DNA of 64,000 nucleotides from the NCBI GenBank assembly GCA_963797825.1, contig CAWCRR010000041.1, positions 24,436 to 88,435 of the forward strand, read 5' to 3'. The DNA comes from an uncultured Verrucomicrobiae bacterium. Its GTDB lineage: Bacteria > Verrucomicrobiota > Verrucomicrobiia > Limisphaerales > UBA11358. Below are positions 1,442 to 56,258 of the stretch, piece after piece (the stretch's first letter is position 1; each line of letters begins with the position of its first letter). Below the pieces are notes generated by a model, which worked only from the letters and a program-made list of their open reading frames with translations, did not search any database and was not told the origin of the DNA. Both the position numbers and the translations under genes were made by a program.

Positions 1442-2857
1442 ATGAATTCCCTCATCGCTCTCATCTTCATCGGCGTTGCCGTCCTGTTCATCATCGGCAT
1501 CAAATTTTTGAGTTCGCCGAAAACCGCGCGGAAGGGTAATCTCATCGCCGCCGCGGGCATGATCATCGCCTTCTTTGCCCTGCACAAAGCCACCGGGGAA
1601 TCGGTCTGGACCCAGGGCTGGACGTTTAATTACACCCTCATCGCCATCGGCATCGTCATCGGATTGATCGTCGGGGCCATCGGCGCTTATTCAGTCAAAA
1701 TGACCGCGATGCCGCAAATGGTCGCGCTCTTCAACGGCCTGGGCGGCGGCGCGGCGGCCCTCGTGGCGAGCCTGGATTTTACGACTAATTCGCACAGCGC
1801 AGGACCAGTCCCGGCGTCCCTCACGGTCCCCATGCTCTTTGCCACGCTCATCGGCTCCCTGTCCTTTTCCGGCAGCATCATCGCGTATCTGAAACTCGAG
1901 GGAAAATTTGAAAAGCCCCATACGTTCCCCGGCCAGAATTTTCTGAACGGCTTGATCATGGTCGTCATCCTCGGCTTGTGCGGCTGGCTGACCATCAATG
2001 CGACCGGCAACAACGCCCTGACCGCCTTCATCGTTTTGTTTTCCTTGGCTTTGGTTTTTGGCGTCGCGATGGTCATGCCCATCGGTGGCGCGGACATGCC
2101 GGTGGTCATTTCGTTGCTCAACTCCTTTACCGGCCTGGCCGTCGCCGCGGACGGTTTTGCCATCAACAACCTCGCCATGATCGTGGCCGGAACGCTCGTC
2201 GGCTCCTCGGGCACGTTGCTCACGTTATTGATGTGCAAAGCGATGAACCGCCCGGTCACCAACGTCTTGTTCGGCGCCTTTGGCTCAGCCGGCGGCGCTG
2301 TCGCCGCGTCCAACGGCATTGCCGGAACGGTCAAACCCATCCAGGCGGACGAAGTTGCCCTGCTCTTGACTTATGCGCAGCGCGTCGTGGTGGTTCCCGG
2401 ATACGGCATGGCCGTGGCGCAGGCCCAGCATCAAGTGCGCGAACTCTCCGATGAACTCGGCAAGCGCGGCGTGGAAGTCCAATTTGCGATCCATCCCGTC
2501 GCCGGCCGCATGCCCGGCCACATGAACGTCTTGCTCGCCGAGGCGAATGTCCCCTACGACCAGCTCATCGAGATGGAGCAGATCAACCCTTCCATGGACC
2601 GCGTGGACGTCTGCCTGGTCATCGGCGCCAACGACGTCGTGAACCCTGCCGCGCGCGAGGAAAAAACCAGCCCGATTTACGGCATGCCCATCATCGAAGC
2701 CGACCATTGCAAATCCACCATCGTGATGAAACGCTCGATGGCCGCGGGCTTCGCCGGCATCGAAAATCATTTATTCTACAAAGACAATACCCGGATGCTG
2801 TTCGGCGATGCCAAGGCTTCCCTCAACGCGCTCGTCGCGGCGGTGAAAGCGAACTGA
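1442..2857 (+). CDS. pntB: NAD(P) transhydrogenase beta subunit (PntB)
   Basis: 471-aa ORF. The N-terminal half is polytopic membrane. The C-terminal dIII domain carries VVVPGYGMAVAQAQH and GANDVVNPAA motifs typical of PntB. Confidence 0.92.
   Translation: MNSLIALIFIGVAVLFIIGIKFLSSPKTARKGNLIAAAGMIIAFFALHKATGESVWTQGWTFNYTLIAIGIVIGLIVGAIGAYSVKMTAMPQMVALFNGLGGGAAALVASLDFTTNSHSAGPVPASLTVPMLFATLIGSLSFSGSIIAYLKLEGKFEKPHTFPGQNFLNGLIMVVILGLCGWLTINATGNNALTAFIVLFSLALVFGVAMVMPIGGADMPVVISLLNSFTGLAVAADGFAINNLAMIVAGTLVGSSGTLLTLLMCKAMNRPVTNVLFGAFGSAGGAVAASNGIAGTVKPIQADEVALLLTYAQRVVVVPGYGMAVAQAQHQVRELSDELGKRGVEVQFAIHPVAGRMPGHMNVLLAEANVPYDQLIEMEQINPSMDRVDVCLVIGANDVVNPAAREEKTSPIYGMPIIEADHCKSTIVMKRSMAAGFAGIENHLFYKDNTRMLFGDAKASLNALVAAVKAN
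2810..2857 (+). repeat. Direct repeat copy 1: last 15 codons plus stop of pntB
   Basis: This 48-nt string recurs at 3767-3814 with one difference (AAC to AAT, synonymous Asn). Aligned by eye base by base. Confidence 0.9.
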
Positions 2858-2947
2858 AGACCACCTCGCTCTGGCTTCTCGAAGTTTTTGAGGAGTCTCT
2901 CAGACAAATCAATTGCGCTGAAAGCGCCAAACCATCGTAGCCGGGGG

Positions 2948-2972
2948 CAACGCCCTCGGAATTAGGGCGTTG
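2948..2972. repeat. REP-like perfect hairpin downstream of pntB
   Basis: caacgccct / cggaatt / agggcgttg forms a 9-bp perfect stem with a 7-nt loop. There is no U-tract, so it is not a classical intrinsic terminator. Confidence 0.5.
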
Positions 2973-3049
2973 GGTCGTCTGCGCCCTGAGAGGGCACTCC
3001 AAAAGAACAAATGAAGAGCGCGTTTCTTAGCCTGTGCGCCACAAATTTT

Positions 3050-3460
3050 TTACGATAAAGGATCAAACAATTGGACGCCAGACGGTTCGAAGTGACGCTT
3101 GTTATGGGTGGCTATGATGTGACCGTTCTGCAAGGCGGTGGCCGCGATCAACGAGTCCTCACACGTCATAGTGCGGTTTTTGACTTTTAAATCAGCGATC
3201 AGTTCCTTCCACCGCACTAACACAGGTTCAGTTAATTCTTCAGTGGCTGGCCCAAACTGTAGTCTGGTATCAGCCAACCAGGCCGCCAGGCTTGCCTGGT
3301 GGGTGGCCGGGGCATGGTCCAATCCAAATTGCAACTCGGCCATCGAAACAATGCTTAAGAAAATATCAGCCTCGTTGCTTTTGACCCATGCCGCCAGTTT
3401 TGGGGGAATCTGCCTCCGCTCCAGCATGGACAAAATGTCCGTATCGATCAGAAAGCTCAC
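3050..3460 (-). CDS. vapC: PIN-domain toxin, VapC/FitB family
   Basis: 136 aa. It starts MSFLIDTDILS, with the first acidic PIN residue in context. It overlaps the upstream antitoxin ORF by 4 nt. Confidence 0.85.
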   Translation of the reverse strand: MSFLIDTDILSMLERRQIPPKLAAWVKSNEADIFLSIVSMAELQFGLDHAPATHQASLAAWLADTRLQFGPATEELTEPVLVRWKELIADLKVKNRTMTCEDSLIAATALQNGHIIATHNKRHFEPSGVQLFDPLS

Positions 3461-3705
3461 TTGAATGGCAACCGATGACGTTCAGGAGGTGGAATGGGTG
3501 ACGGACAGCGGGAAAACTGCTTGAGCAATCCAACGGCGCCCCGGCGTTTGCCCGGCTTTGGCGTCAGAACAATGCTGTTCTTGCCATCGCGCACCGGACG
3601 CACCTCCACCGTGCCGCCACCGGACAGTCCGGAAGCATCGCGCCACCATTTGGGCAAGGTGCTTTGGCCCACCTTGGAAACAGTCATGGTATCCAAATCT
3701 TTCAT
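3457..3705 (-). CDS. vapB: AbrB/SpoVT-type antitoxin (VapB)
   Basis: 82 aa. MTVSKVGQSTLPKWWRDASGL resembles the swapped-hairpin AbrB/MazE DNA-binding N-terminus. It is translationally coupled to the PIN toxin. Confidence 0.75.
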   Translation of the reverse strand: MKDLDTMTVSKVGQSTLPKWWRDASGLSGGGTVEVRPVRDGKNSIVLTPKPGKRRGAVGLLKQFSRCPSPIPPPERHRLPFK

Positions 3706-3707
3706 CC

Positions 3708-3740
3708 TTTAAGGATTCCTTAAATCGGCCCGCTTGTCAA
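3708..3740 (-). promoter_or_regulatory. Putative vapBC promoter/operator
   Basis: On the minus strand TTGACA (3735-3740) precedes an 8+1+8 perfect palindrome, tttaaggaNtccttaaa (3708-3724). The palindrome ends 3 nt before the vapB ATG. This fits an autoregulatory operator and a near-leaderless mRNA. Confidence 0.4.
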
Positions 3741-3766
3741 TCCTCGTCGTGGAGCCTCGTCGTGGA

Positions 3767-3814
3767 GCCAAGGCTTCCCTCAACGCGCTCGTCGCGGCGG
3801 TGAAAGCGAATTGA
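3767..3814 (+). repeat. Direct repeat copy 2: orphan pntB coding tail
   Basis: 47 of 48 nt are identical to 2810-2857, including the stop codon. A 12-nt tandem duplication (cctcgtcgtggag x2, 3741-3766) precedes it. Confidence 0.9.
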
Positions 3815-3872: not shown

Positions 3873-5152
3873 TCAAAGCAGCCGGCCAGAAATGATCGCC
3901 CGATATCGGGCGGGCTTGTCTTTTTTGACGTTCTCAATCACTCCTTCTTCCGTCAGTCTTGCCAGCCATTCTTTTGTTTGAGACCTGGTCACACCGAGGA
4001 GACTCATAATTTCCGCTTCAGTCCGGAAGGCGACAAGCTCGCGGCGGAGTATTTCACGCACAGTTTTGAAAAGCTCTTCGGCAATATCAGGCGTTTCACC
4101 GGCAATGTTGGAAGACCCGGCTGGCTTCACAGGTTGGTTGTAGGCAGCCGGTCGTTCCTGCAATGCGAATGAAAGAGATTCCTGTGTTGGTTCCGCGGCA
4201 ACCGACTCTAACGCGGCTGAAAGCGCTCCAGCCAATTTCCGCGGCGTTCCCCGGATTTGGCCACGCCAATCCGCCATGGTGAATGAGCGCCGAATTTCCC
4301 CGGCCCGAATTGTTTTCGTTTCGGACAAATACCGGAACAAAGTGAAATTTTTCAAGCTGCTCGATTGCTCCCGCCCACGTGCCGCCCGTTTCGAAATCGG
4401 AAGTCACGACCAAAGCTGCGTCTGCTATGGCGTAAATGACCTTGTTGCGTTGCATGGCATTGCCGACATTGAATCCCGCCGCCGGATCGTAAGGCGATAC
4501 AAGCAGCAGCCGGCGGTCCATGAGCGGCTCGCGATTTTCGTTGGCGATTGCCGCACGCTCAAGACTGTCGGCCATCACCGCCACTGCCTCGCCACCGGAT
4601 TGAAGCACACCGTTGATGGCGGCGCGATCAATGCCTTTAGCTCCGCCGGAAATCAGCGTCTGATGCGCCTCCGCGGCGAGTTTTCCAATCCCCTCCGTGT
4701 AACTGATAAGTTCTTCATCCACGTGGCGTGAGCCAACCACCGCCAATCCGCCCTTTTCCAGCAACGCCAAATCACCACAGCCATATAGCAGGGGTGGGGC
4801 ATCCTCCTTCAATCGTGTCTTCAGCCGTTTGGGATAAGATGGATCCGCCCGGCTGATGACCCAGTTGCTTCGGGCGCTCCATCGTTCGATGGCCTGACTC
4901 AATAAAAATCCTCGCCCCAACAAAGCTTCCAGTCTTTCACGCCCAAACTGTTGCGCGCAAAAATCGAGGAGATCGCCCGCGTCAGTCCCAAGCAAATCGG
5001 CGGGTTGTTTTTGTTTTTCACGCAAGAGGCGGGCGAGACTGATTATATTCGCCCAGGCTGAACAACTTTGGCGAAGGATCTCCGCGCCCGGCGATAAGCG
5101 GCGCGGTTAGCAGCAGGATGGCCTGCGTGTTCGATGTCAGCGGTGTGGTCAT
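3873..5152 (-). pseudogene. DprA/Smf-like DNA-processing protein (SLOG Rossmann domain plus C-terminal winged helix), frameshifted
   Basis: Three reading frames are needed. A 44-codon N-terminal piece ([19 protein letters not shown]..) runs from ATG 5152. The DprA core ([19 protein letters not shown]..) lies in ORF 4096..5025. The wHTH tail lies in ORF 3873..4355. The frame switches near 5025 and near 4230-4275. Confidence 0.7.
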
Positions 5153-7234
5153 TCGTCAGCGTTAGCGGTCGAGGCCAGGGCTATAGGATACACCGGCCCG
5201 CTGCCGTTTGAAAGCAACAGATAAGCCGCGACCGTCATCGTCCATCTTGAATCCACCATATCATCCACCAGCAGGACCGCGCCAGCCGGAATATTTGCCA
5301 CTGATCTTCAAGGAACCATCCACATTCCGCGCTTGTTGGCTGCTGTTTGCCATTTGTTTTTGTGCCGGGCGGTCATCCGGTCTTTTCCAGCAGCGGAATG
5401 GAATGGCAGATTTAATGCGGTAGCCAGCCGGCGGGCAAAGTCGCGGCACAAGAGTTCGGATGCCGGCGTGAGGGAATAAAAGCAACCCAAGCGGGCGCCG
5501 GTTGAGGTCGCCCAGGTCTTCACCATCGCCGCGCAGGCTTCGACCAATTGATCGGCAAATCGTCCGTCCTTCGATTTTCCCTTGGCGCACCAATGAACCC
5601 CAGCCCGCGTCGCCCCACATGCAAAGCACACGGCCAGATTGAGCCTGGCACTCCGGCGCAATTCGTCCGCTAATGCCCATTTGAGGCAGTCCGCCTGTTG
5701 GCCATTGACGGCGCGGTTCCAGCGGCAAACTCGTGCGGCGCAGAAATGCGACCGCTTCCCGCGCCAACCCGGCATCAAACGTGTCGGGCAAAGGTGCGAT
5801 ATTCGGAACATGATCGGGAACCGGGTCGCCATCTAATGCGCGAATGAGAAAGTTCCATGTGTCGGGATGTTAGCGCCACATATTCCAGCATCTGCTGTTG
5901 TTCGACGCGACGCAATCCAGTCAGTCGCTCCGCCCGCTCCCAAAATGCGGGAGACAGATTGGCTGTTGTCAAAGTCCATTTGTTTCCCTGCTTCACCGCC
6001 GGGGCGGGCGATTCCAACGATATCAATTGAAGAGCCTTTTCAATGCGCCCTCTCCGGATATTTGCCCGGCTTAATAGTTCATTGACGGAAAGTCCCCCGG
6101 ATGCGTCCCGGAGCGCGGATAGAAGCGATTCAACTTCTTCACGTGATGGAAACGCACTTTCAATGAAAAAATCATTGATGTCTGATTCTTCCACTCCACT
6201 GAGCAGCACCCCATGAGCCGCTGAAATTTGCCGTCCGGCGCGGCCCACCTGCTGATAGTAGGCGACTACGGAGCCGGGCGTTTGGTAATGAATCACAAAG
6301 GCGAGGTCTGGTTTGTCATAGCCCATGCCCAGGGCGGTGGTTGCCACTAAGGCTTTCACGCGATTTTCCAACAAGGCATTCTCCAGTTCAACGCGCCGTT
6401 CGCCGGTCTCGCCGCTGTAAGATTCCGCCCGAATACCTCGCGATTGCAGCCAGCGCGGCGACCTGGACCGCATCGCGCACAGTGAGCGTGTATACAATGC
6501 CACTGCCCGGAATTCCCGGCAGATGCGTTGCCAGCCATGCCATTCGGGCGGCTCTGGCTTGGCATCCGTATCGTCTGAAGAAGTAGCGAAGGCCGGCCCA
6601 ACTCACCACGCGATACTGTTAAATTCGGCCCAAGGATGATTTGCAAATCCTCAAGCACACGGTTGTTCGCTGTCGCCGTCGTGGCGAGCACGCGCAAATT
6701 CGGCGGCAATGTGCGAATCATTCGCTCGATAAGACGATAGTGTGGACGGAAATCATGGCCCCAATCCGAAATGCAGTGCGCCTCATCCACCACCAGTAAC
6801 GAGATGCGTCCCGCCACCGGCCTCAGTACCTCCGCGCGGAAGTGCCCATTCGCCAACCGTTCCGGCGCAACGAGCAGAATGTCCACCTCATTACGGGCCA
6901 GTGCCCCCTCCACACTTTTCCATTCTTCCTGATTCTCAGAATTGATGGTGACCGCTCGAACACCCATCCGATGGGCCGCCACAATCTGGTTTCGCATCAG
7001 CGCCAAAAGCGGCGATATCAGAATGGCCGGCCCCAGACCCTGTTCTCGCAATAATTTAGCCGCAATAAAATAAACGAAGCTTTTTCCCCAACCAGTTCTT
7101 TGCACGACCAACAATCGACCGCGTCCATCGACGACATGCTGAATGGCGTTCGCCTGCCCTTCGTGAAATGCAGCCGCTGGATTCTGCGTGCCGAGGCGCA
7201 GCAATTCGAGGGCGCGTGTTGGGTTATAAGGCAA
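5149..7234 (-). pseudogene. RecQ-family helicase fused to a ComF-like phosphoribosyltransferase domain, multiply frameshifted
   Basis: ORF 6356..7234 carries helicase motifs, including DEAH (VVDEAHCISDWGHDFRPHY). ORF 5775..6503 carries the helicase C domain (ATTALGMGYDKPD, QQVGRAGR). The PRTase-like tail (VLLVDDMVDSRWTMTV) is visible only in a further frame at 5149-5290. At least five frame changes are needed. Its stop overlaps the dprA-like ATG (ATGA). Confidence 0.7.
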
Positions 7235-9148: not shown

Positions 9149-9253
9149 TTTTTAAACAAACTCCTGACCTTTGGCAAAAATTGGTGAACATTTGGCTCAA
9201 CAAGGTTGGTCTCAATCTTTCCCGGAACGATAATTCATCAAACCCATATTCTT

Positions 9254-10562
9254 ATGAACCAGAAAACCCGATTCGATCTGGAACAGGCCGATATTCCCGC
9301 CGCCTGGTATAATCTCAACGCCGACTTTCCCGAACCTTTGCCGCCGCCGCTGCATCCGGGCACCGAAGAGCCGCTGCCGCCGGAAGCGCTGGAGGCGATT
9401 TTTCCGCGCAACCTCATCGAGCAGGAACTCAGCCGCGAAAAGTGGATTGAAATCCCCGACCCGGTGCGCGACATCTATGCGCTCTGGCGGCCCACGCCGT
9501 TGCTGCGCGCCGTGCGATTGGAGCGGGTCCTGAATACCCCGGCGCATATTTATTACAAATACGAAGGCGCCAGCCCCGCCGGCAGCCATAAGGTCAACAC
9601 CTCCGTCGCCCAGGCCTATTACAACAAGATCGCCGGCACCAAACGGCTGGCCACCGAGACCGGCGCGGGCCAATGGGGCGCCTCGCTGGCGTTCGCGTGC
9701 AGCCTGTTCGGCCTGCAATGCAATATCTACATGGTCCGGGTCAGCTACGACCAAAAACCCTATCGCCGGATGCTCATGCACACCTGGGGCGCGCACCGTC
9801 CACGCCAGCCCGAGCGACCAGACGGAATACGGACGCAAACTCCTGGCCGAAGACCCGAAATGTCCCGGCAGCCTCGGCATCGCCATCAGCGAAGCCATCG
9901 AGGACACCGTCAAGACGCCCGACACCAAGTACTCTCTGGGGAGCGTTTTGAACCATGTCTGCCTGCACCAGACCGTCATCGGCGAGGAATCTCTCAAGCA
10001 AATGGAAAAGGCCGGCGAGGAACCGGATGTGATCTTTGGCTGTTGCGGCGGTGGCAGCAATTTCGCCGGGCTGGCCTTTCCGTTCATCGCAAAAAAAATC
10101 CGCAACGGAAAAAAATACCGCCTCGTCGGCGTCGAGCCGACGGCGTGTCCGTCGCTGACGAAAGGCGAATTGCGTTACGATTTCGGCGACACGGCGGAAT
10201 CCACGCCGCTGCTGAAAATGTTCACCCTCGGCCACAAATTCATTCCGCCCAGCATCCACGCCGGCGGTCTGCGTTACCACGGCATGTCCCCGATGGTCAG
10301 CCACGCCCTCAAACTCGGCCTCATCGAAGCGGAGGCGTACCACCAGACAAAAATTTTTGAAGCGGCGATTTTGTTCGCGCGCAACGAAGGCATCGTCCCC
10401 GCGCCGGAATCCGCGCACGCCATCGCCGCCGTCGTGAACGAAGCCGCGAAATGCCGCGAGTCGGGCCAAAAGAAGGTGCTTCTCTTCAACCTCTCCGGCC
10501 ACGGGCTGCTCGATTTGAGTTCGTACGAAAATTACTTGCAGGGAAAAATTCAGGACGCTTAA
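9254..10562 (+). pseudogene. TrpB2-type tryptophan synthase beta-like PLP enzyme, single frameshift
   Basis: The N-terminal part lies in ORF 9206..10360 (HKVNT PLP-lysine context, ETGAGQWG). The rest lies in the frame of ORF 9948..10562 ([11 protein letters not shown]). The frames switch at about 9788-9797, just after HTWGA. This may be a sequencing error. Confidence 0.75.
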
Positions 10563-10573
10563 ACCCAAAATAA

Positions 10574-11455
10574 ATGAAAATTAAATTGATTCTCCTGGCC
10601 GCCGTTTGCGGATTGGCCTTCTCCCTCCACGCGCAATTGCCCGTGGGGAGCCATTACCCCACCGGCGCGGAAGGCATCAAAGGCGCCTCCCTTCCGCGGC
10701 CGGGAATTTACCTGCGCGACTACAATTTTTTCTACAACGCCAACAAGGTGGACGGCATGCCGAATGGCCCGGACATTTTCGCCTACGTCCAGGCGCCACG
10801 CCTGATCTGGATCACCCCCTGGAAAATCCTTGATGCGAATTATGGCATGGATGTCATCGTGCCCTTCGCTTACAAGAACATCGCCGCGCCCTTTGGCGAC
10901 GCGCATCAATTCAATCTCGGCGACATCCAGGTCGAACCGCTGGTCCTCTCGTGGCACTTCAAGCAATTCGATGCCGCCGCCGGTTACGCGATTTGGGTGC
11001 CGACGGGTGAATTTGACGCCAGTACGCCCGCGAAATATCTCAGCAGCGCCGGAAACGGTTTTTGGACGGACATGCTCACCCTCGGCGGCGTCTGGTATCC
11101 CGACCAGAAAAAAACCTGGGCGTTTTCGCTGTTAAACCGTTACGAAATCAACAGCCGCCAGGAGCACACGCACGTGACGCCGGGCGAAATGCTCACCATG
11201 GAATGGGGCCTGAGCAAAACCGTGATGCCTGGTGTGGACGTCGGCCTGGCCGGCTATTACCAGCAACTCGTCACCAAAGACAGCGGCGCGGGCGCATCGC
11301 CGCATTATTCCGACGTCGTCGGCGTCGGCCCGGAAGTCAGCGCGTTCTGGCCGAAAATCAAGACCTTCACGTCGCTCCGCTACGCTTACGAAGTGACCGC
11401 CCGCAATCGCCCGCAAGGCCAGACCACCGTGCTGACCATCACCAAAATATTTTGA
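10574..11455 (+). CDS. Outer-membrane beta-barrel transporter (MetA-pathway/phenol-degradation-like family)
   Basis: 293 aa with a signal peptide and an alternating beta-strand pattern. There is a C-terminal aromatic residue (..ITKIF). The family call comes from overall resemblance only. Confidence 0.55.
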   Translation: MKIKLILLAAVCGLAFSLHAQLPVGSHYPTGAEGIKGASLPRPGIYLRDYNFFYNANKVDGMPNGPDIFAYVQAPRLIWITPWKILDANYGMDVIVPFAYKNIAAPFGDAHQFNLGDIQVEPLVLSWHFKQFDAAAGYAIWVPTGEFDASTPAKYLSSAGNGFWTDMLTLGGVWYPDQKKTWAFSLLNRYEINSRQEHTHVTPGEMLTMEWGLSKTVMPGVDVGLAGYYQQLVTKDSGAGASPHYSDVVGVGPEVSAFWPKIKTFTSLRYAYEVTARNRPQGQTTVLTITKIF

Positions 11456-11467
11456 CGGTTAAATATT

Positions 11468-11491
11468 CTTTGCGTCTTTGCGTCTTTGCGT
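11468..11491. repeat. Tandem 8-mer (ctttgcgt x3) 12 nt upstream of trpB
   Basis: Read directly from the sequence. The same motif occurs as cgcaaagac near 29165. Confidence 0.8.
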
Positions 11492-11503
11492 GAGAATTGA
11501 ACA

Positions 11504-12718
11504 ATGAGTTCGGTTTTCGCAGACAATTTGCCCGACGCCCAGGGCCATTTCGGTCCCTACGGCGGACGTTATGTGCCGGAGACGCTGATGCACCCGCTGA
11601 AAGAGTTGGAAGAGGAATATTTCCGCGCGCAGCATGATCCGGAATTCCAACGCGAACTTTCCTATTATCTCACGGAATTCGTCGGGCGCCCCACCCCGCT
11701 TTATTTTGCCGAACGCCTCACCAAAGACGCCGGCGGCGCGAAAATTTATCTCAAGCGCGAAGACCTCAACCACACCGGCGCGCACAAGATCAATAACGCC
11801 ATCGGCCAGGTCCTCGTCGCCAAACGGATGGGCAAGACGCGCGTCATCGCCGAGACCGGCGCGGGCCAGCATGGCGTGGCCACGGCCACCGTCGCGGCGA
11901 TGTTCGGCTTGAAATGCTGTATCTACATGGGCGCGGTGGATTGCCGGCGGCAGGAGTTGAACGTCTATCGCATGAAGATGCTCGGCGCGGAAGTCGTGGC
12001 CGTCCATGCGGGACAAAAGACCTTGAAGGAAGCTGTCAACGAGGCCATGCGCGATTGGGTAACGAACATCCGCGACACGCATTACATCCTCGGCACCGCT
12101 TACGGCGCGCATCCCTATCCCGTCATGGTGCGGAATTTCCAGCGCGTCATCGGCGATGAAGCCCGCGCGCAGATTTTGGAAAAGGAAAAGCGGCTGCCGG
12201 ACATGCTCATCGCCTGCGTCGGCGGCGGCTCGAATGCCATCGGCCTGTTCTATCCGTTCCTCGAGGACAAATCCGTGAAGCTCGTCGGCGTGGAAGCAGG
12301 TGGGTTGGGCATCAAACCCGAGCAGCACGCCGCGCGGTTCCAGGGCGGCTCCCTCGGCGTGTTGCAGGGAACGCGCAGTTACATTTTGCAGGACGAATTC
12401 GGCCAGATCCAATCCACCCACAGCGTCAGCGCCGGATTGGATTATGCCGCTGTGGGCCCTGAACACGCCTGGCTGCGCGACGCCAGCCGCGCTGAATACA
12501 CCTACGCCACCGATGCCGAAGCGCTCGAAGGTTTTATGAAACTCGCGCGCCTCGAGGGCATCATTCCCGCGCTCGAAAGCGCGCACGCCATCGCCGAAGT
12601 CATGAAGCGCGCGCCGAAAATGGGCAAGAATGCGCTCATCATTGTGAACCTTTCCGGCCGCGGCGACAAAGACGTGGAGCAGGTCGCGAAGAAATTGAAA
12701 TTGAAGATGCCGAAGTAA
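11504..12718 (+). CDS. trpB: Tryptophan synthase beta chain
   Basis: 404 aa. Motifs are [14 protein letters not shown] (PLP lysine), [10 protein letters not shown] and GGGSNAIG. The protein is full length and intact. Confidence 0.95.
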
Positions 12719-12725
12719 TCGGCTA
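12659..12725 (+). repeat. trpB tail repeat R1 (last 19 codons, stop and 7 nt)
   Basis: This 67-nt segment is repeated at 13133-13199 (about 63/67 identical). A deleted form lies at 13783-13828. Confidence 0.9.
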
Positions 12726-12736
12726 ATTTAGATTAA

Positions 12737-12949
12737 ATGAAAAGAAATTTTACTGCCGTTGTAAAACAGGATGAAGGCTGGTGGATTGGCTGGATTGCGG
12801 AAATTCCCGGGGTCAATTCCCAAGGCAAATCCCGCGCCGAACTTTTGAAAAATTTGCGATCGGCATTGAAAGAAGCATTAGAATTTAACCGCGACGACGC
12901 ACTCGCTGCAGCAAAAACCGATTACGAAGAAGAGCCGATCTTCGTGTGA
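12737..12949 (+). CDS. hicB: HicB-family antitoxin
   Basis: 70 aa. FTAVVKQDEGWWIGWIAEIPGVNSQGKSRAEL is the typical HicB/UPF0150 N-domain. It overlaps the hicA start by 4 nt (GTGA). Confidence 0.8.
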   Translation: MKRNFTAVVKQDEGWWIGWIAEIPGVNSQGKSRAELLKNLRSALKEALEFNRDDALAAAKTDYEEEPIFV

Positions 12950-13131
12950 AGCGGCGCGAGCTAATCCGGCATTTGAGCGCACATGGATGCGTGCTTATCC
13001 GCGAAGGCAGCGATCATTCATGGTGGGGAAATCCGGCAGCCAACCGCCGCTCCGCTGTGCCGAGACATAACGAAATAAACAAATTTCTTGCGCGAAAAAT
13101 TTGCCGCGACCTGGGAATTCCAGAGCCGTGA
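12946..13131 (+). CDS. hicA: HicA-family mRNA interferase toxin
   Basis: 61 aa with a GTG start. LIRHLSAHGCVLIREGSDHSWW..VPRHNEI fits the HicA/YcfA pattern. Confidence 0.8.
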   Translation: MKRRELIRHLSAHGCVLIREGSDHSWWGNPAANRRSAVPRHNEINKFLARKICRDLGIPEP

Positions 13132-13132
13132 G

Positions 13133-13199
13133 CGCGGCGACAAAGACGTGGAGCAGGTGGCGGCCAAATTGAAATTGAAGATGCCGAAGTAATCGGCTA
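13133..13199 (+). repeat. trpB tail repeat R2 (orphan coding tail)
   Basis: It starts 2 nt after the hicA stop. It would encode [19 protein letters not shown]-stop. It differs from R1 by one synonymous change and one replaced codon. Confidence 0.9.
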
Positions 13200-13209
13200 T
13201 TTTATTTTC

Positions 13210-13770
13210 ATGCTTGCGGCAGCTAAACATCGCTTTAGTGTGAAGGAATATTACCGGATGGCGGAAACAGGCGTTTTGCCTTCCAATGCCCGTGTCGAAT
13301 TGCTGAATGGCGAAATCATTGATATGTCACCTATCGGCCCCTTTCATGGCGGAATCACAAAATATTTGAGTAAAATCTTTTTTGGGGCCGCCCAGGGCCG
13401 CTGGATCACGCAAGTCCAGGACCCGGTGCGTTTGGACGATTATTCCGAACCTGAGCCGGACATTGCGCTGCTCAAGCCGATTTCTGATTTTTACCGCAAG
13501 CGGCATCCGCAGCCGGAAGATGTCTTTCTGTTGATTGAAGTCTCCGACACCAGCCTGGAAGCTGATCTTGAACAAAAGCTGCCCGCCTATGGCCGCGCGG
13601 GAATTGTCGAAGTCTGGATTGTGAACCTCAATGCGGCGACGGTTGAAATTTATCGGGAGCCAAACTTCACCGGCTACGGCAGCAAAGCCGTTTTGCGCGC
13701 GGGCGACCAGGCCCAACCGCTGGCGTTTCCCGACGTTGCCGTGGATGTGGCCGAACTGCTGAAACGGTGA
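13210..13770 (+). CDS. Uma2-family (DUF820) putative restriction-endonuclease-like protein
   Basis: 186 aa. The YYRMAE..G....RVELL.GEII.MSP start and the PEPDIAL...E(V)..(S) core are typical of Uma2 proteins. Confidence 0.75.
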   Translation: MLAAAKHRFSVKEYYRMAETGVLPSNARVELLNGEIIDMSPIGPFHGGITKYLSKIFFGAAQGRWITQVQDPVRLDDYSEPEPDIALLKPISDFYRKRHPQPEDVFLLIEVSDTSLEADLEQKLPAYGRAGIVEVWIVNLNAATVEIYREPNFTGYGSKAVLRAGDQAQPLAFPDVAVDVAELLKR

Positions 13771-13782
13771 ACCTCTCTCGGG

Positions 13783-13828
13783 CCGCGCGACGAAGACATG
13801 GAGCAGGTGGCGGCCGAAGTAATCGGCT
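13783..13828 (+). repeat. trpB tail repeat R3 (decayed, 20-nt internal deletion)
   Basis: It shares the gtggcggcc variant with R2. It lacks aaattgaaattgaagatgcc and ends in gaagtaatcggct like R1 and R2. Confidence 0.8.
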
Positions 13829-13895
13829 GATTTGGATTATGTGAAAAGCAATTTTGCTGCCGTTGTAAAACAGGATGGTTCTAATCCGCGAAGGT
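13829..13895 (+). pseudogene. Remnant of a second hicB-hicA copy
   Basis: gatttggattatGTGaaaagcaattttgctgccgttgtaaaacaggatgg matches the R1-hicB junction and the first 13 hicB codons. It is then fused to ctaatccgcgaagg, which resembles hicA codons around LIREG. Confidence 0.65.
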
Positions 13896-13995
13896 CTCTA
13901 ATACTTCAATGATAACCGCCAGAAACACACATTGCGTAGATGAATTTTGAAATATTTTTTGTCCTTTAACAACCTGCTATTGAAGGACTTTTGAC

Positions 13996-15243
13996 TTAAT
14001 GAATACGAATCATGCCAGCATTCCAAACGTCAAGAGTTCCTTTGACACAAAGGATGACACTGGGAAGGATTAAGCCAAGGATCAGACATAACCACATGAA
14101 ATAACTCGTCCAGCACTGGCTTTTTGCGGGCAAAGGCCTCGGAAAATCCGGTGTGACACCTGCCGCAAGCATGCGGTCATAAAGATTAGGATGAATCTTT
14201 GTGGACAACGATGACATCACCGCTGGAGAGCCATTGGATTCATAAAGACGGGCAAGGGCGCGCGCATAGATGGCGCCATCCACCTGAAAATCTCCGACGA
14301 TCTTGTCAGCTCGTTTTTCCATGCTGCGCGCTACGCGGATCACAACGATCCACAAAACAAATATCCCGATGACGAGAAAACCAAACGTGGCAGTGCCATT
14401 GTCGCCAAGCGAAAGAAGTGGCCGGCAAAAAATCCATGGAAAGAAAATGAATGAACCCAATAATCGGATGAACAGCACAACTTTTGGTTCGTCCAAATGT
14501 CCCAACTCATGCGCGCAGACCGCTTGTATTTCATCGTCATTGAGGATGGAAATCAATTTATCGGTGAAAAGTAATTGGCGCTCTAGGGGAAAGGCTGCGG
14601 CATTTGCCACATACGTTGACAAAATCCATGACTTACGGACCGGCACGCCTAATTTTTGAGAGGCCTCGGCCACGAGCGCATTCAAATGGTCCGTGGCTGG
14701 TCGCAACAAACCGAACCATTTCAGGATCAGCAGCCCCAATCCGAAGCGAAAAGCCAGGATCGTAAGAAAGACACCTGTGGCGAAAATCCAAGTGGTAAGG
14801 CCAAAATGGTCGGGCATGGCGAAAGCCGTGACGACTATCAACAACCACATGGGGATAATTAACAACAGACCTGCGGCCAGAAGATGCAACCAAAGTCTAA
14901 AACGTAGCGGGGGGTGCAACTCACGGCTCAAAAAATAGCCGGCAAACACAGCGCCCAGGAACGCGGATATAGCCACCACTAAAATTTGAATCCCTGAAAA
15001 AAAATAACAACACACCAGTGTTAGATTTAACGGGATCAACCAGGTATTCAGGCTGGCGGACTTTGCAACGGGATAGGACAATCTGGCCCGCTCAGTCCAG
15101 TGCTTGCCAACGCTCCTGCGCCAGGGAATAAGCGCAAGCCAGTTCAAACTCCAGGACAACACAAAGGCGATGCAAAAACTTCCGACTGTCAGCGCCAAAA
15201 ACATTGCTGTTGAATAGCAATTTGCTTTAACCAAGTCCAGCAT
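13996..15243 (-). CDS. M48-family membrane zinc metalloprotease
   Basis: 415 aa with multiple TM helices. It carries the HExxH motif in the context AVCAHELGHL. Confidence 0.75.
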   Translation of the reverse strand: MLDLVKANCYSTAMFLALTVGSFCIAFVLSWSLNWLALIPWRRSVGKHWTERARLSYPVAKSASLNTWLIPLNLTLVCCYFFSGIQILVVAISAFLGAVFAGYFLSRELHPPLRFRLWLHLLAAGLLLIIPMWLLIVVTAFAMPDHFGLTTWIFATGVFLTILAFRFGLGLLILKWFGLLRPATDHLNALVAEASQKLGVPVRKSWILSTYVANAAAFPLERQLLFTDKLISILNDDEIQAVCAHELGHLDEPKVVLFIRLLGSFIFFPWIFCRPLLSLGDNGTATFGFLVIGIFVLWIVVIRVARSMEKRADKIVGDFQVDGAIYARALARLYESNGSPAVMSSLSTKIHPNLYDRMLAAGVTPDFPRPLPAKSQCWTSYFMWLCLILGLILPSVILCVKGTLDVWNAGMIRIH

Positions 15244-15301
15244 CGCAAAAAGGCAATTGTTTCATCTCGACATGGATATCTCAAAACCGAACATTCATTG
15301 A

Positions 15302-15670
15302 ATGAACCAATCTCTCACCACCCGCATCGCCGCCATCGCCGGCTTTCTCGCCGTCGCGCTCGGCGCATTCGGCGCGCATGGATTAAAGGGATTGCTCGCG
15401 CAGAACGGGACGGCCACAATTTGGGAAAAGGCGGTCTTCTATCATTTCATCCACGCCGTCATGTTGTTCGTGTTGGCGGATCGAAAACCCTTTCCAGCGG
15501 TCGCCTGGTGGAGCTTCCTCCTCGGAATTATTTTTTTTAGCGGCTCACTTTATTTGCTGGCGGTGACGGATGTCCTTTGGCTCGGCGCGGTGACGCCGAT
15601 CGGCGGCGTCAGTTTTCTGGTGGGCTGGGGATTCCTGGTCTTCAAATCTTCGCGGACGGAAATCAAATAA
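15302..15670 (+). CDS. DUF423 (YgdD-like) small membrane protein
   Basis: 122 aa with four hydrophobic helices. LGAFGAHGLK and YHFIHA motifs are characteristic of DUF423. Confidence 0.75.
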   Translation: MNQSLTTRIAAIAGFLAVALGAFGAHGLKGLLAQNGTATIWEKAVFYHFIHAVMLFVLADRKPFPAVAWWSFLLGIIFFSGSLYLLAVTDVLWLGAVTPIGGVSFLVGWGFLVFKSSRTEIK

Positions 15671-19680: not shown

Positions 19681-20040
19681 GTAGCAGCGGACATGAGTCC
19701 GCTCTAATTTCATTCAAGCACCGAACAAACGACCGAACTGGCTCATATCGGCTTATCCCGAAGGGATGCAGGCTGGTAGCCACGGGTGGAGCGCCGCGGA
19801 ACCCGTGGACAGGAATTCAGGAAGAGAAAACCCGCCCCCTCGGGGCGGAGGAAAATTCGCGCATTGAACCCCCGAACTTGGTAGGGACGGCGCGCTGCGC
19901 CGTCCGCGCCGCGTTCAGCGGCGCAACGTGGGGCGTGATTGAGCGCGCCTTGGTCCATTCGTTCCGCCCGCTCCACGCGGGCGGGGACATCACAGCACGA
20001 TGTCCCTACCGGAATCAGGGTCAGGGTGAGGTGAGGTCGG
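19681..20040. repeat. Cluster of four REP-type units between gspE and the first pilin-like gene
   Basis: A family E unit lies at 19681-19705. A family B doublet lies at 19880-20010 (gtagggacggcgcgctgcgccgtcc ... gggacatcacagcacgatgtccctac). A family A fragment lies at 20015-20040. Confidence 0.75.
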
Positions 20041-25249: not shown

Positions 25250-25930
25250 ATGAAAATTTTAAACCTTCAATACTGGCTGGTTGGCGCTGCCGTTGCCGCT
25301 TTCCTGGCCGGCGCCGCACAGGCCCAAAATACCCCGGATGTTTCCGTTGTGAATTCGACCGCTCCCGCTGTGACCGCCGCGCCTGCGACCCCCGCGCCGG
25401 AATTGGCCAGCAGCGTTTCCCAAGTCCTGCAGCTTTCTCAGGCGAAAATCAGCGACGGCACCATCGTCAGTTTTATCAACAACTCCAGCACGAGCTATCC
25501 GCTCGCGGCGTCGCAAATCGTTTATCTGAAACAGCAGGGCGTCTCCGACGCAGTGCTCAACGCGATGCTCAACCAACACCCGGCAATTATCGCTTCCAGC
25601 GCGCCGGAGCCGGATAATTCCACGCCCGCCCAAACGGCGACAGCTACCGCTCCCACAGTGACGACGTACGAAACCGTTCCCTCCTCCTCGGTTTACGTCA
25701 TCCCGGATACCCAAACTTATTACTATGACAGCGGGTATTACGGTTATCCGTATTATGGATATCCGTATTACTATGGGCCGGGTGTTTCCATCGGACTGGG
25801 CTGGGGCTGGCATGGCGGCTACGGCGGTGGCTGGCACGGTGGCTATGGTGGCGGTTGGCATGGCGGTGGCGGCGGCTGGCACGGCGGCGGCGGTGGCTGG
25901 CACGGCGGCGGCGGTGGCTGGCATCGCTGA
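25250..25930 (+). CDS. Secreted low-complexity protein with Tyr-rich segment and C-terminal (GGGWH)n repeats
   Basis: 226 aa with a signal peptide. It contains YYYDSGYYGYPYYGYPYYYGP followed by six WHGG(Y/G)GGG repeats. Confidence 0.55.
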   Translation: MKILNLQYWLVGAAVAAFLAGAAQAQNTPDVSVVNSTAPAVTAAPATPAPELASSVSQVLQLSQAKISDGTIVSFINNSSTSYPLAASQIVYLKQQGVSDAVLNAMLNQHPAIIASSAPEPDNSTPAQTATATAPTVTTYETVPSSSVYVIPDTQTYYYDSGYYGYPYYGYPYYYGPGVSIGLGWGWHGGYGGGWHGGYGGGWHGGGGGWHGGGGGWHGGGGGWHR

Positions 25931-25965
25931 AATCGACAAATATCCGGTTTTGGTTAAGTTAAGCC

Positions 25966-48593: not shown

Positions 48594-49367
48594 AGGGGCA
48601 GTCGGCGTTGGCTCCAGCGCGGAGGCGCAATCACGCTTCAAATTTTCGGGTCAATCTGCGACTTGAGCTTCTCGACATCCTTTTTCAGTGCTGACACCTG
48701 ACTCAGCGCTGCCAACCCAAAAATAAAACCCATCACCCCAAAAATGTATCCAAGTGCTTCCATATCTTTGATTCCTTTCTTTTGTGTTTTTCGATGCGCC
48801 TAACATATTATTAGGCCGCAAACTGCGGTAATAATTTTGTCGGTTTCAAGACTATATTTCTTTGTTTTCCATTTGTCCAGAACAGCTTAACCTCGGAAAT
48901 CCTGAAGATATGAATATTGCAATTGCCGCACGCAAGGAAAAGTTTGTCCCCGATCCAAAGTTGCGCTTGCGGGAGCGAAAAGAAAAGGGGTCTGTTAATG
49001 ATATTGTCATATTTTTAGAAAACTTCGCAATGGTTTTCCGGCCCGAACCCTTTGTTTTCGCCGGCTCAACAGGAAGGCCAGGCCCCGTCTCCGCTTCGCT
49101 TCGACGCGACCGCGCCGAAGCCGTAGCGAAGGCGGGGAGTGCGGTGGCTGGCGGGGAATGGGGCTGACACCGCTTTCGAATGGCCTCGGCGCGTGCGAAC
49201 GTAAAAGCGGTGTGAAGCCCCCACCCCTCACCCACCGCACTGCACGACGCTGGCGCGCTTTTCGGCCATCCCCAGCCGGAGCGTGGCTACAGAATTAGTT
49301 GAACCGCTCTCTATGTTGAATGTTGGATGTTGGATGCCACGGCCCGGTGCAACGCGCACGGACAATT

Positions 49368-49437: not shown

Positions 49438-49485
49438 TGCGGAGAATGAGGAATGCAGAATGAAGAAATAGGGCAATGCCCCCCT

Positions 49486-53540: not shown

Positions 53541-53596
53541 GACGAAGGAACCCTCTGGTCCACGCCGGCGCGCACGGAGTGACGCGCCCTACCGCC

Positions 53597-55532: not shown

Positions 55533-56258
55533 CTACATCGGCGGACAGTATGCACTGCTCCATTGCCAGTCTTCGGGGCGCGTGCAAAGCCTGGCGCTGA
55601 CCGGGTTGTTTACCGTGTAAGCCGCGCAACGTAAACGATCGTCATCATCACGAATGAGATGATCATAGGACTCGGTTTGCCAGAAGATGCCCGAACGGCC
55701 CAAAAATTTGTTGGCCGCTTTGGACGTAAACGATTTCCAACTGTGCAATATGCGGCTCAACGTCTCCGTTTGACGCGGCCAGACAACGACATGCACATGA
55801 TTCGGCATAATCACCCACGAACGCAGGTCGTAGCGTTGCCCGTCGAAGAATTTCAGCGCCTCAGCGACGACCTTTGCGATTTCCGGCTGGCGAAGAAAAC
55901 AATCTCCATGCCCGGCGTCGAGATAGGCGTCCACGCGGGCGGAATACCAGCGGAATAGCTCCTCTTGTTCCCGCCAGGTGAGCGGGCGTTTGGCGGCAAG
56001 CGCGTGTTGGAGTATCTGCTCGCGCTCCTCTCTGAATTTTTGCAGGACACTTGCGGGCAACGTGCCGGCCAGCCGGAATGTGACAAAGTAGCTGCTACCT
56101 TCCCTTTTCAGATGTGGCAGATGATCGCGCGAATGGAAGCCGGCGGTGAGTCGGCGCGGCGTAGGGCAGGCATCTTGCCTGCCGGTGGCAGCGGCTTCCA
56201 GCCGCGATGTTCGAGCACCGCTTTTCTGCCGCGATGTATTATCCGATGGCATAATCAT
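55533..56258 (-). CDS. REP-associated tyrosine transposase (RAYT, IS200/IS605 Y1 superfamily)
   Basis: It has HLPHL..SYFVTFRL, the HUH motif MPNHVHVVV, and WQ..SYDHLIRD with the catalytic Tyr region. The ORF's first 30 or so codons run into the upstream REP doublet, so the start is uncertain. Confidence 0.85.
   Translation of the reverse strand: MIMPSDNTSRQKSGARTSRLEAAATGRQDACPTPRRLTAGFHSRDHLPHLKREGSSYFVTFRLAGTLPASVLQKFREEREQILQHALAAKRPLTWREQEELFRWYSARVDAYLDAGHGDCFLRQPEIAKVVAEALKFFDGQRYDLRSWVIMPNHVHVVVWPRQTETLSRILHSWKSFTSKAANKFLGRSGIFWQTESYDHLIRDDDDRLRCAAYTVNNPVSARLCTRPEDWQWSSAYCPPM

Follow-up and report, generated by a model that had tools for sequence, protein, structure and literature searches.

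How do chromosomal toxin–antitoxin (TA) modules and solo toxin genes move when they carry no mobility genes? The reviews consulted give no settled answer. The question takes a concrete form in the stretch of DNA analyzed here ('the window'; 64,000 nucleotides from an uncultured Verrucomicrobiae bacterium), in which the 3'-end of the tryptophan synthase gene trpB recurs as a separator between small cassettes. We describe this array, compare it with other loci (designated 'L'), and consider how it might have been built. Such loci offer a concrete mechanism that can be tested on sequences: cassettes may travel with the conserved 3'-end of an essential gene, leaving behind, every time one arrives, a displaced tail as a datable scar.

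The conserved anchor of the array is trpB, which encodes the 404-aa tryptophan synthase beta chain (positions 11504–12718, plus strand, as are all parts of the array; Pfam PALP, E = 9.4e-43) and whose product is 80–91% identical in amino acids to those of the trpB genes of Verrucomicrobiota MAGs. Its final ~70–90 nt constitute repeat R1 (12645–12730), the functional tail plus 12 nt past the stop codon; the part from 12659 to 12730 pairs with R2, and the sequence from 12645 onward with R3. Eighteen nucleotides past the trpB stop begins a hicBA cassette (12737–13131). Its two genes, hicB (12737–12949) and hicA (12946–13131; GTG start), overlap by 4 nt. HicA matches HicA_toxin (E = 1.3e-11); HicB matches Pfam UPF0150 under the cut-off for that family, and its homologues are annotated HicB. 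With these features of HicAB systems, the pair is an intact predicted type II TA cassette. HicB has 1958 database homologues, many of them named HicB; in many contigs they are 80–91% identical, and there they mostly sit directly 3' of trpB.

R2 (13133–13204) starts 1 nt past the hicA stop. It is a displaced trpB tail, from codon R386 to the stop plus 12 nt, and over the 72 nt that it shares with R1 (12659–12730) it is 93% identical. The differences are GTC to GTG (synonymous), AAG to GCC (K to A), and one A/T beyond the stop. Next comes a Uma2-family PD-(D/E)XK nuclease-like gene of 186 aa (13210–13770; Pfam Uma2, PF05685, E = 1.4e-31), whose profile match scores 109.7 bits against a gathering cut-off of 27 and spans positions 2–171 of 172. 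Homologues at E ≤ 1e-30 number 2636, nearly all 186 aa long, and in the contexts sampled the Uma2 gene lies 17–20 nt after trpB. The R2–Uma2 unit is collinear with the intact trpB–Uma2 junction of L024, with an 18-nt spacer in both. Exact-protein look-ups found no record identical to the TrpB or the Uma2 protein of the window.

R3 (13767–13840), a trpB tail followed by a hicB leader, is the oldest and most decayed of the window's trpB tails. It starts with GTGAACC (trpB V381–N382), overlapping the Uma2 stop codon (13768–13770); since this start, 13767, corresponds to R1 position 12645, R3 has 14 nt more on its 5' side than R2. Within it are the GTGGCGGCC variant and a 20-nt deletion (AAATTGAAATTGAAGATGCC) bounded by GCC...GCC, and it extends through a stop remnant, TAA, at 13820–13822. 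Behind it is a hicB'A' remnant (13841–13894): the initial 12 hicB codons with a GTG start, fused to a 17-nt hicA fragment and then truncated. The R1–hicB junction is copied after R3 (82% over 87 nt, ATG having become GTG at 13841), and tblastn recovers hicB residues 1–12 in the remnant at 75% identity. The hicB' stub (13841–13877) abuts a hicA-internal fragment (13878–13894) that matches 12991–13007, and the fusion is an internal deletion between two GGATG motifs. Shuffling 100 times gave no chance match to the 33-nt R core at ≤3 mismatches. The preliminary description of this DNA had reported the three trpB tails separating hicBA, Uma2 and the remnant, the single synonymous change and K-to-A swap of R2, the presence of that variant together with a 20-nt deletion in R3, and the decayed R1–hicB junction with its altered start codon, and the present analysis bears this out. 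Its remark that no trpA follows trpB is also correct; this is the normal state in all 14 of the 14 close relatives examined.

In L001, the DUF423 gene begins 11 nt past the trpB stop. Relative to that arrangement, the window has an inserted segment between trpB and the DUF423 gene (12719–15290), comprising the array and an M48 peptidase gene (13996–15243, minus strand), with a GC content of 0.42–0.53 compared with ~0.60 in the flanks. Open reading frames within 5 kb of the array encode TrpB2-like, MetA-pathway porin, M48 peptidase, DUF423, outer-membrane, TPR and ECF sigma factor proteins.

Might the repeats be an assembly artefact, or copies of a regulatory element of trpB such as a terminator or attenuator? 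The relatives are metagenome assemblies, and a weak hairpin (GCCGA-AGTAA-TCGGC), with a stem of only 5 bp, does cross the stop codon in each R copy. Against this, the copies differ by substitutions and indels, and so are not identical repeats that have been collapsed or expanded; JGI, ENA and NCBI assemblies, independent of one another, contain analogous arrays; and the repeats are the coding tails of whichever gene lies upstream. One contig, that of L003, has a name (np2-np3_contig_55156) that suggests nanopore assembly. Rfam contains no RNA family matching 11400–15400 at E ≤ 1, and terminator-like sites number 7 against 6.1 expected, without enrichment. Because the promoter/terminator scan is at background, duplication of a regulatory element was dropped, and we consider this whole class of explanation extremely improbable.

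The array of the window is one case of a recurrent, polymorphic structure in Verrucomicrobiota relatives. Among the comparison sequences, all of which are metagenome contigs or MAGs, our tally includes 149 loci with trpB alone and no cassette, 16 with trpB–Uma2, and at least 18 with trpB–hicBA–R. Longer arrangements are trpB–hicBA–R–hicBA–R (L188 and L192), trpB–hicBA–R–hicB2A2–R (L190), and trpB–Uma2–R–hicBA–R–hicB2A2–R (L175, L179 and L182); L175 thus has four trpB tails and three cassettes. Empty sites at trpB are found in L001, L081–L083 and L086. After Uma2, no trpB-tail remnant was detected in L087, L092 or L193, and the signal in L024 and L095 was marginal (z about 2). The L024 copy of Uma2 contains an in-frame stop. 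Cassette presence, absence, number and order, then, all differ among relatives, and neither a fixed arrangement in all of them nor a duplicated regulatory element, the two outcomes named beforehand as speaking against accretion of cassettes, was found.

The same anatomy occurs behind other genes. In L184–L186 the host is an aas-like gene. Behind it come Uma2, then 217 nt that repeat the aas tail and leader at 90% identity, then hicBA, and finally a 79-nt copy of the aas tail, the third in L184. The Uma2 and hicBA cassettes found at trpB are therefore found also behind this unrelated gene, separated by copies of the host gene's own tail, which answers the question raised at the outset of whether such cassettes carry foreign gene tails elsewhere. 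A second instance lies in the window itself: a repeat of the pntB tail (PNTB, E = 3.3e-180) flanks a vapBC pair (2810–3814), consisting of vapC (3050–3460, minus strand; PIN, 1.4e-8) and vapB (3457–3705, minus strand; MazE/AbrB-type antitoxin, 1.6e-7). The two tail copies, 2810–2857 (with the stop) and 3767–3814, are 48 nt long and identical at 47 of 48 positions, the sole difference being synonymous. Sequence beyond the right-hand copy resembles the post-pntB sequence of L173, which, with L163 and L183, has an empty site at pntB. Further loci are a Nitrospira lipoprotein gene with vapBC and a 431-nt repeat (L066), trpB with a 314-aa open reading frame and a 410-nt repeat (L003), and a gene identified as RNase HIII-like solely from its translation, with an 809-aa gene and a 73-nt repeat (L015). 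Across loci, the repeats range from 48 to 431 nt.

Several candidates did not belong. Repeats at 55375–56315 of the window are REP-like palindromes around a gene resembling a RAYT-type transposase. Those of L122 and L142, where the closest trpB relatives are from Nitrospira, are intergenic elements in a trp-gene neighborhood and not tail duplications. The 152-bp repeats flanking a Microcystis ParDE module are likewise intergenic rather than gene tails. TA loci flanked by repeats were reportedly mentioned by Pandey and Gerdes in 2005.

Where cassettes meet tails, some features are shared and others vary. The left boundaries of the trpB tails fall at codons 365, 376, 381 or 386. In an unlinked context (L161), the 3' flank of hicA reads CCTGAAACG, and trpB codons 365–367 read CATGAAACG; by this comparison the hicA–trpB joint lies in a match of 7–9 nt (TGAAACG). 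Other cassette–tail joints match at TGA or TGAACC only, or the joint is not resolvable. The stops of Uma2 and hicA2 coincide with the TGA inside trpB GTGAACC. The Uma2-TGA/ACC joint of the window recurs in L175, L179 and L182, and also in L200, where it reads TGAT; the hicA-TGA/AACGC joint, together with nested deletion derivatives, recurs in lineages whose TrpB is 80–92% identical to that of the window. In the L163-type group, hicBA keeps its own preceding tail variant and leader at any array position, with the exceptions of L183 and of the first cassette of L188, which have other leaders. Three cassettes join a tail exactly at the stop codon, two or three of them at one shared GTGAACC. Random illegitimate joining would be expected to look less tidy, and the pattern hints at a hot spot for breakage or at selection for compactness.

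Such regularity invites comparison with site-specific recombination. The preliminary description proposed repeated accretion of cassettes at a single attachment point overlapping the end of trpB, resembling an integron or tandem islands. Repeated accretion at the end of trpB stands; a fixed attachment site does not, boundaries and lengths being variable, and the arrays are integron-like in layout only. On an integron- or island-like scheme, the trpB tail would contain an att site for a recombinase of the tyrosine or serine type whose gene lies elsewhere, and cassettes would be excised and inserted in circular form. The layout, with one repeat per cassette, the two or three joints at one GTGAACC, and the small hairpin spanning the stop codon of each R copy all fit. 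The differing left boundaries do not, nor do repeats that range in length from tens to hundreds of nucleotides, separators at aas, pntB and the Nitrospira gene that are unrelated in sequence, copies that differ in the manner of diverged alleles, a hairpin so short, or terminator-like sites no commoner than expected. Instead of attC-type sites, the separators are trpB, aas and pntB coding tails with variable left boundaries. The units consist of hicBA or Uma2 only, with neither an integrase inside them nor a fixed att core, and with repeats of varying extent. As had been noted for the window, recombinases are missing from the surroundings: none lies within 5 kb of its array (open reading frames and Pfam), no integrase, resolvase or transposase family is among the genes listed within ~3 kb of >40 arrays, and intI neither adjoins the array in the window nor appears among the genes listed near >40 related ones. 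We judge site-specific recombination very unlikely.

Are the tails duplicates, then, or alleles? If the recipient's own tail had been duplicated on insertion, as in 'insertion with long target duplication', and had then decayed neutrally in situ, ~47% of differences should be at the third position of a codon. Among the clean trpB pairs, 42 of the 56 differences between functional and displaced tails are at third positions. The aas pairs give 12/18 and 8/12, the L003 pair 10/11, and the L066 pair 13/14. The pairs in this test have common ancestry and are not independent of one another. In L163-type arrays, moreover, the functional tail is of a 400-aa type (KIKL*) and the displaced tail of a 404-aa type (KVKLEMPK*). 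Since the differences are mostly at third positions, the displaced copies look like former alleles from different lineages, joined by inter-lineage recombination, and they lack the behavior of recombinase core sites. Duplication of the recipient's tail has in its favor the anatomy, which is that of restriction–modification insertions (no mobility genes, and flanking direct repeats whose length varies from tens to hundreds of bp), and the near-identity of the pntB copies. The predominance of synonymous third-position differences in four independent systems, the many arrays that pair 400-aa with 404-aa tail types, which would be unexpected of copies born identical of which one decays neutrally, and the recurrence of identical cassette–tail joints across lineages and array positions argue the other way, and we think duplication improbable. 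Another source of third-position bias is conceivable in principle, namely translation of the displaced tails and selection on the resulting peptides; several of these tails are intact mini-ORFs overlapping the stop codon of hicA (ATGA). At the 3'-end of the window's own trpB, a sliding-window nearest-neighbor scan detects only a weak switch toward hicBA-linked alleles, in the last ~150 nt.

Building on what is observed, namely the anatomy, the polymorphism, the junctions (some shared, some varying) and copies that are allelic, we propose that recombination among distinct 'haplotypes' of the flank 3' of trpB, with no integrase, probably assembled the array. The comparisons suggest that ordinary recombination, and not a dedicated integrase, builds and shuffles such arrays. 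Related lineages have small addiction-type genes, the hicBA pair and a nuclease-like 'solo toxin' gene, Uma2, immediately behind the stop codon of trpB. In a founding event, DNA from such a donor would enter a cell and recombine on the left through homology inside conserved trpB; its right end would be joined illegitimately, at a microhomology of a few bases, upstream of the end of the recipient's trpB. The gene would be rebuilt with the donor tail, and the recipient tail pushed downstream, non-functional. Homology alone does not account for the first arrival of cassettes directly behind the stop of a new host gene such as aas or pntB. Once displaced, the tail could act as a second homology arm, leaving the cassette bracketed by trpB-tail sequence like a natural knock-in construct that ordinary homologous recombination could insert wherever a genome has a similar trpB. 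A right crossover in the recipient's functional tail would place the new cassette promoter-proximal to older ones, and arrays would grow; crossovers between tails would delete, duplicate or reorder cassettes. Addictive or toxic cargo would be hard to lose, and so such cassettes would remain visible. Given leaders of just 18 nt, transcription from trpB probably continues through the cassettes. In the window, a trpB–hicB'A' arrangement may have come first, followed by the Uma2 unit (R2–Uma2, leaving R3) and last by a second hicBA unit (R1–hicBA, leaving R2), the old hicB'A' then decaying.

What starts the process might be a nuclease. In a homing scheme, Uma2 would cut the trpB tail of cassette-less alleles near GTGAACC, and repair from a Uma2-bearing allele would copy the cassette; imperfect repair would leave a displaced tail and capture neighboring cassettes. 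Uma2 genes of the 186-aa subfamily do follow trpB by 17–20 nt in lineages with differing downstream genes, the displaced tails behind Uma2 and hicA2 begin at the same GTGAACC, and the interrupted Uma2 of L024 is what a homing cycle of gain and decay would produce. Furuta et al. proposed double-strand breakage as a common factor in restriction–modification insertions. But the nuclease activity of Uma2, and its target, are putative, and many arrays have no Uma2 at all (trpB–hicBA–R, pntB–vapBC and the Nitrospira vapBC) and encode toxins that are RNases. The shared joint could equally reflect a single ancient event, inherited and spread. Homing as the driving process therefore seems unlikely to us. 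A broader possibility, which we offer tentatively and with some doubt, is that conserved 3'-ends of essential genes act as portable homology arms, throughout this clade and probably beyond it, in a cassette system that needs no integrase. TA and nuclease cassettes lying between two copies of a housekeeping-gene tail would be natural knock-in constructs, spread from lineage to lineage by ordinary homologous recombination and stack into arrays; Uma2, tightly linked to trpB, might actively trigger this with a cut in the trpB tail, at GTGAACC or close to it. If true, this would be a general route for 'immobile' addiction modules and the real basis of 'long target duplications'. Recombination between haplotypes, our preferred reading, accounts for the orphan mini-ORFs resembling trpB that gene callers annotate in these contigs, and the tails are a possible marker for recombination-mediated gene flow in uncultured Verrucomicrobiota.

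How do these arrays compare with known systems? Integron arrays comprise intI, attI and attC sites that are imperfect palindromes, and short, co-oriented, mostly promoterless cassettes that often encode TA systems. The present arrays resemble them in having one repeat per cassette and newest-first accretion beside a fixed point. Unlike integrons, they have no intI, attI or attC-type palindrome; their separators are coding tails of the neighboring gene, variable in extent, and recombination is probably of the RecA type rather than site-specific. Tandem islands at the 3'-ends of tRNA and other genes are integrase-encoding elements with a fixed att core that measure kilobases to hundreds of kilobases. 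There too the 3'-end of the target is restored, a displaced partial copy is left at the far end, and tandem arrays can form, but the cassettes here are 0.4–0.6 kb long, with no integrase and with variable repeat boundaries.

Closer is 'insertion with long target duplication', described for single insertions of restriction–modification systems (Nobusato et al. 2000; Furuta, Abe and Kobayashi 2010, PMC2853133). In both cases addiction-type units without mobility genes lie between direct repeats of variable length (~45–420 bp in that work) that align to one copy in empty-site genomes, and some of the published repeats overlap gene 3'-ends (PMC2853133). The structural hallmarks—an insert <20 kb, no mobility genes, repeats >30 bp, and empty sites—are all present here, and extend the phenomenon from restriction–modification systems to TA cassettes. 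The cargo differs, being HicAB, VapBC and Uma2 rather than restriction–modification genes, and the arrays are iterated, with up to four tail copies. So, it appears, does the origin: by the indirect test of third-position bias and differing tail types, the 'duplication' is not of the recipient's own target but consists of two alleles from different lineages, which suggests that such 'duplications' may be allelic mosaics formed by inter-lineage recombination.

[quoted passage not shown] 2009; Kirchberger et al. 2017, PMC5361080). In those loci, as in the scheme proposed here, incoming DNA is anchored by homology in conserved upstream sequence, the new module takes the promoter-proximal position, and the old 3'-end and its linked genes are shifted downstream; repetition yields orphan modules in series, with a remnant of the conserved gene ahead of every one, and no integrase takes part. 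A conserved anchor with 3' remnants after newer modules is what we find in R1–R3 of the window, in L175 and in L184, and displacement arrays, known from polymorphic toxin loci, are thereby extended to housekeeping genes. The anchor here is the gene for a housekeeping enzyme (trpB, the aas-like gene or pntB), whereas theirs is a polymorphic toxin gene; what is displaced is a short tail without a toxin domain; the cargo consists of self-contained TA pairs and a solo nuclease-like gene, in place of toxin tips with their immunity genes; and identical cassettes occur behind different anchor genes.

The final ~70 nt of trpB (11504..12718, plus strand) occur twice more downstream in the same orientation, with accessory cassettes between and behind the copies. 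R1, the functional tail (12659-12730), and R2, the first displaced copy (13133-13204), are each 72 nt long and 93% identical. R3, the second, starts at 13767 with GTGAACC, overlapping the stop of the gene before it; its 5' limit lies 14 nt beyond that of R2, it shares the GTGGCGGCC variant with R2, and it has a 20-nt deletion with GCC...GCC at its bounds. An intact hicB-hicA toxin–antitoxin pair (12737..13131; HicA_toxin E = 1.3e-11) separates R1 from R2, and a Uma2-family gene (13210..13770; Uma2 E = 1.4e-31) separates R2 from R3. Behind R3 comes a second R1-hicB junction, in which ATG has become GTG, and then a remnant, hicB', in which 12 hicB codons are fused to 17 nt from the interior of hicA and which ends there. 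Repeat alignments, ORFs and Pfam matches bear out every detail that the preliminary description gave. The 33-nt repeat core found no chance matches in 100 shuffles. A hairpin, GCCGA-AGTAA-TCGGC, is possible in each tail copy (12706-12720, 13180-13197 and 13811-13829); its loop holds the stop codon and a T-rich run follows. A relative (L084) has CCAAA-GTAA-TTTGG, a possible compensatory version. In a promoter and terminator scan this hairpin was not above background, and an Rfam search of the array region gave no match.

The closest trpB genes (80-91% amino acid identity) come from Verrucomicrobiota MAGs, peat or soil metagenomes, and the gene downstream is different in nearly every one. The absence of trpA after trpB, remarked on earlier for the window, is common to every close relative examined. 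In L001, a DUF423 gene begins 11 nt past the trpB stop; its counterpart in the window begins at 15302, so that ~2.6 kb (12719-15290) is inserted in the window. The GC content of this segment is 0.42-0.53, versus ~0.60 in its flanks. Cassette presence, number and order vary among relatives, so the arrays are polymorphic; the tally of architectures is biased, as loci from L161 on were found through HicB or Uma2 queries. The arrangements, with R a displaced tail copy, are trpB-Uma2 (L024, L084, L087, L092, L095 and the Uma2-query contexts P0189/P0166), with a 17-20 nt spacer as in R2-Uma2; trpB-hicBA-R (L088, L163-L174, L176-L181, L183, L187, L189 and L191); trpB-hicBA-R-hicBA-R (L188 and L192); trpB-hicBA-R-hicB2A2-R, with a second HicAB family (L190); and trpB-Uma2-R-hicBA-R-hicB2A2-R, with four tails and three cassettes (L175, L179 and L182). 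The R2-Uma2-R3-hicB' order of the window is that of L175, compared with which the R1-hicBA unit is an additional, promoter-proximal cassette. Both protein families are large and tightly conserved: there are 1958 homologues of HicB (E <= 1e-8), including >120 clusters 81-91% identical, and 2636 of Uma2 (E <= 1e-30), almost all of exactly 186 aa. L140, a more distant relative, has an ORF immediately 5' of trpB (5217..5516, minus strand) that, going by its translation only, looks HicA-like; it is flanked by 51-nt direct repeats (5126-5892) that are 94% identical and intergenic rather than a gene tail.

The same anatomy occurs at other host genes. In L184-L186, hicBA and Uma2 cassettes with foreign gene tails lie behind an aas-like gene (1137 aa, with MFS, acyltransferase and AMP-binding domains). 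After this gene come Uma2 (71.5% identity to that of the window), an aas-tail copy (217 nt including a 37-nt post-stop leader, 90% identical), hicBA (87-90% identical) and a third aas tail (79 nt). Each array is therefore divided by copies of the tail of its own host gene. The HicB proteins nearest to that of the window (89-91%) are in a third context, adjoining an epimerase gene, without trpB. Elsewhere, a 410-nt repeat of the trpB tail flanks a 314-aa ORF (L003), vapBC is flanked by 431-nt copies of the tail of a lipoprotein gene (L066, Nitrospira), an 809-aa gene lies between 73-nt tail repeats (L015), and a 508-aa gene lies between repeats of the trpB head, not the tail (L002).

The window itself holds a second, independent insert of this kind, pntB-vapBC. 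A window-wide repeat scan found the last 48 nt of pntB (1442..2857; PNTB E = 3.3e-180), from 2810 and including the stop, again at 3767-3814 (47/48 identical; spacing, 957 nt), with minus-strand vapC (PIN) and vapB (AbrB/MazE-type) between the copies. What follows the right-hand copy is similar to the DNA natively present after pntB in L173. Because trpB directly follows pntB in L163-L165, 2858-11503 may consist mostly of accreted DNA. Directly 3' of the displaced tail, within 3873-5025, are a DprA/Smf-like gene (DNA_processg_A E = 1.8e-34, plus a SLOG-type match) and, overlapping it, an ORF with weak winged-helix matches, both on the minus strand. A second PALP-domain gene (9206-10562; ~33-38% identity to TrpB, possibly TrpB2 type) is split over two frames between ~9793 and 9870, as a pseudogene or by a sequencing frameshift.

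The tail-cassette arrays are not site-specific. Repeat lengths range from 48 to 431 nt across loci, trpB copies begin on the left at codon 365, 376, 381 or 386, and the separators at one host gene show no sequence relationship to those at another. The earlier statement that no recombinase is nearby holds: no integrase, resolvase or transposase family is listed within 5 kb in the window, or among called genes within ~3 kb of >40 related arrays.

Some joints point to microhomology. In an unlinked context (L161), the hicA stop and flank read CCTGAAACG followed by TATG, trpB codons 365-367 read CATGAAACG followed by CGCG, and the array joint reads CCATGAAACGCGCG, a microhomology of 7-9 nt. Shorter joints (L173, L174, L175 and L188) look like nested deletions of the longer one; that of the window, TGAG followed by CGCGGCGAC, is the shortest and may be of independent origin. 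The Uma2 and hicA2 stops (window and L175) are the TGA within trpB GTGAACC, and the L200 Uma2 joint uses the same V381-N382 codons, reading TGAT, with a decayed 70-nt tail 3' of Uma2 (z = 19.9 versus shuffles). Such stop-codon-exact joints and repeated use of GTGAACC are tidier than random illegitimate joining predicts. In L175, the first ~45 nt are near-identical in all four tail copies, and the final ~25 nt of each, plus leader, are specific to the following cassette. In the L163-type group, hicBA retains its own tail variant and leader regardless of array position; other leaders are carried by L183 and the first cassette of L188. Behind hicA, the displaced tail frequently forms an uninterrupted 38-aa ORF, MKRAPKM...KLEMPK* (e.g. 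L163 3889-4008 and L183 3892-4008), whose ATG overlaps the hicA stop (ATGA) and which gene callers list as a small gene; these mini-ORFs could be translated, or have a coupling role.

Duplication of a tail in situ would leave its distal copy to decay without regard to codon position, giving ~47% third-position differences, a figure that presumes that the functional copy changes at synonymous sites only. Third positions account for 42/56 differences in clean pairs from trpB arrays, 12/18 (R1 versus R2) and 8/12 (R1 versus R3) in the aas array, 10/11 in L003 and 13/14 in L066; the aas frame was set by hand from the stop codon at 2664-2666, script index 0 being the third position. In L163-type arrays, moreover, the functional trpB ends in KIKL*, the 400-aa form natural in L007, L009 and L094, and the displaced copy retains KVKLEMPK*, the 404-aa form. 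This excess and these ends indicate that the copies are former alleles, each shaped as a functional trpB end in a separate lineage before the two came together. In L002 (7200-7215), a point mutation (GAA>TAA) creates a stop at codon 401, and the former ATGCCGAAGTAA end persists behind it; trpB can evidently do without its last four codons, in keeping with the occurrence of natural forms of 400 aa and 404 aa.

Other repeats were noticed in the window. A minus-strand 241-aa ORF (55533..56258) resembles, by eye, a REP-associated tyrosine transposase (RAYT), and its flanks (55375-56315) carry REP-like palindromic repeats of 57-nt and 51-nt families, spaced 783-788 nt apart. Dispersed families of 50-240 nt, 80-98% identical (49364-49788, 53210-53910, 19877-20010, 51010-51064 and 57553-57677), partly G+C-rich palindromes, probably represent REP- or MITE-like elements. 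A coding repeat with 21-24 nt units in tandem (25792-25939) encodes a GGWHGG-type glycine/histidine-rich protein tail.

From the structures, polymorphism and allelic signature observed, we infer the following course. A donor gene 3' end plus cassette would recombine through homology in the conserved gene, with a right joint formed by microhomology 5' of the point where the recipient's own gene ends. The resulting tail-cassette-tail unit, homologous to the conserved gene on both sides, could then move between lineages by ordinary double crossovers. A right crossover in the recipient's functional tail would add a cassette ahead of existing ones, one in a distal tail copy would replace them, and crossovers between tail copies would delete or duplicate cassettes. 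Only repeats spanning a gene end would leave both neighbouring genes intact, which would explain why the inserts sit at gene tails and, in L002, at a gene head. Addiction-type cargo would account for which inserts persist. Makarova et al. consider Uma2, of the PD-(D/E)XK superfamily, to be a probable solo toxin; given its tight linkage to trpB, a nuclease might also assist the process in a homing-like manner.

Insertion with long target duplication is known for restriction–modification systems (Nobusato et al. 2000; Furuta, Abe and Kobayashi 2010, PMC2853133), with variable repeats of ~45-420 bp, without mobility genes and by an unknown mechanism (PMC2853133). Our literature searches found no description of it for toxin–antitoxin cassettes, nor of arrays on housekeeping gene tails. 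The founding step would correspond to homology-facilitated illegitimate recombination, which has been put forward to explain displacement arrays at Rhs and T6SS loci (PMC5361080).
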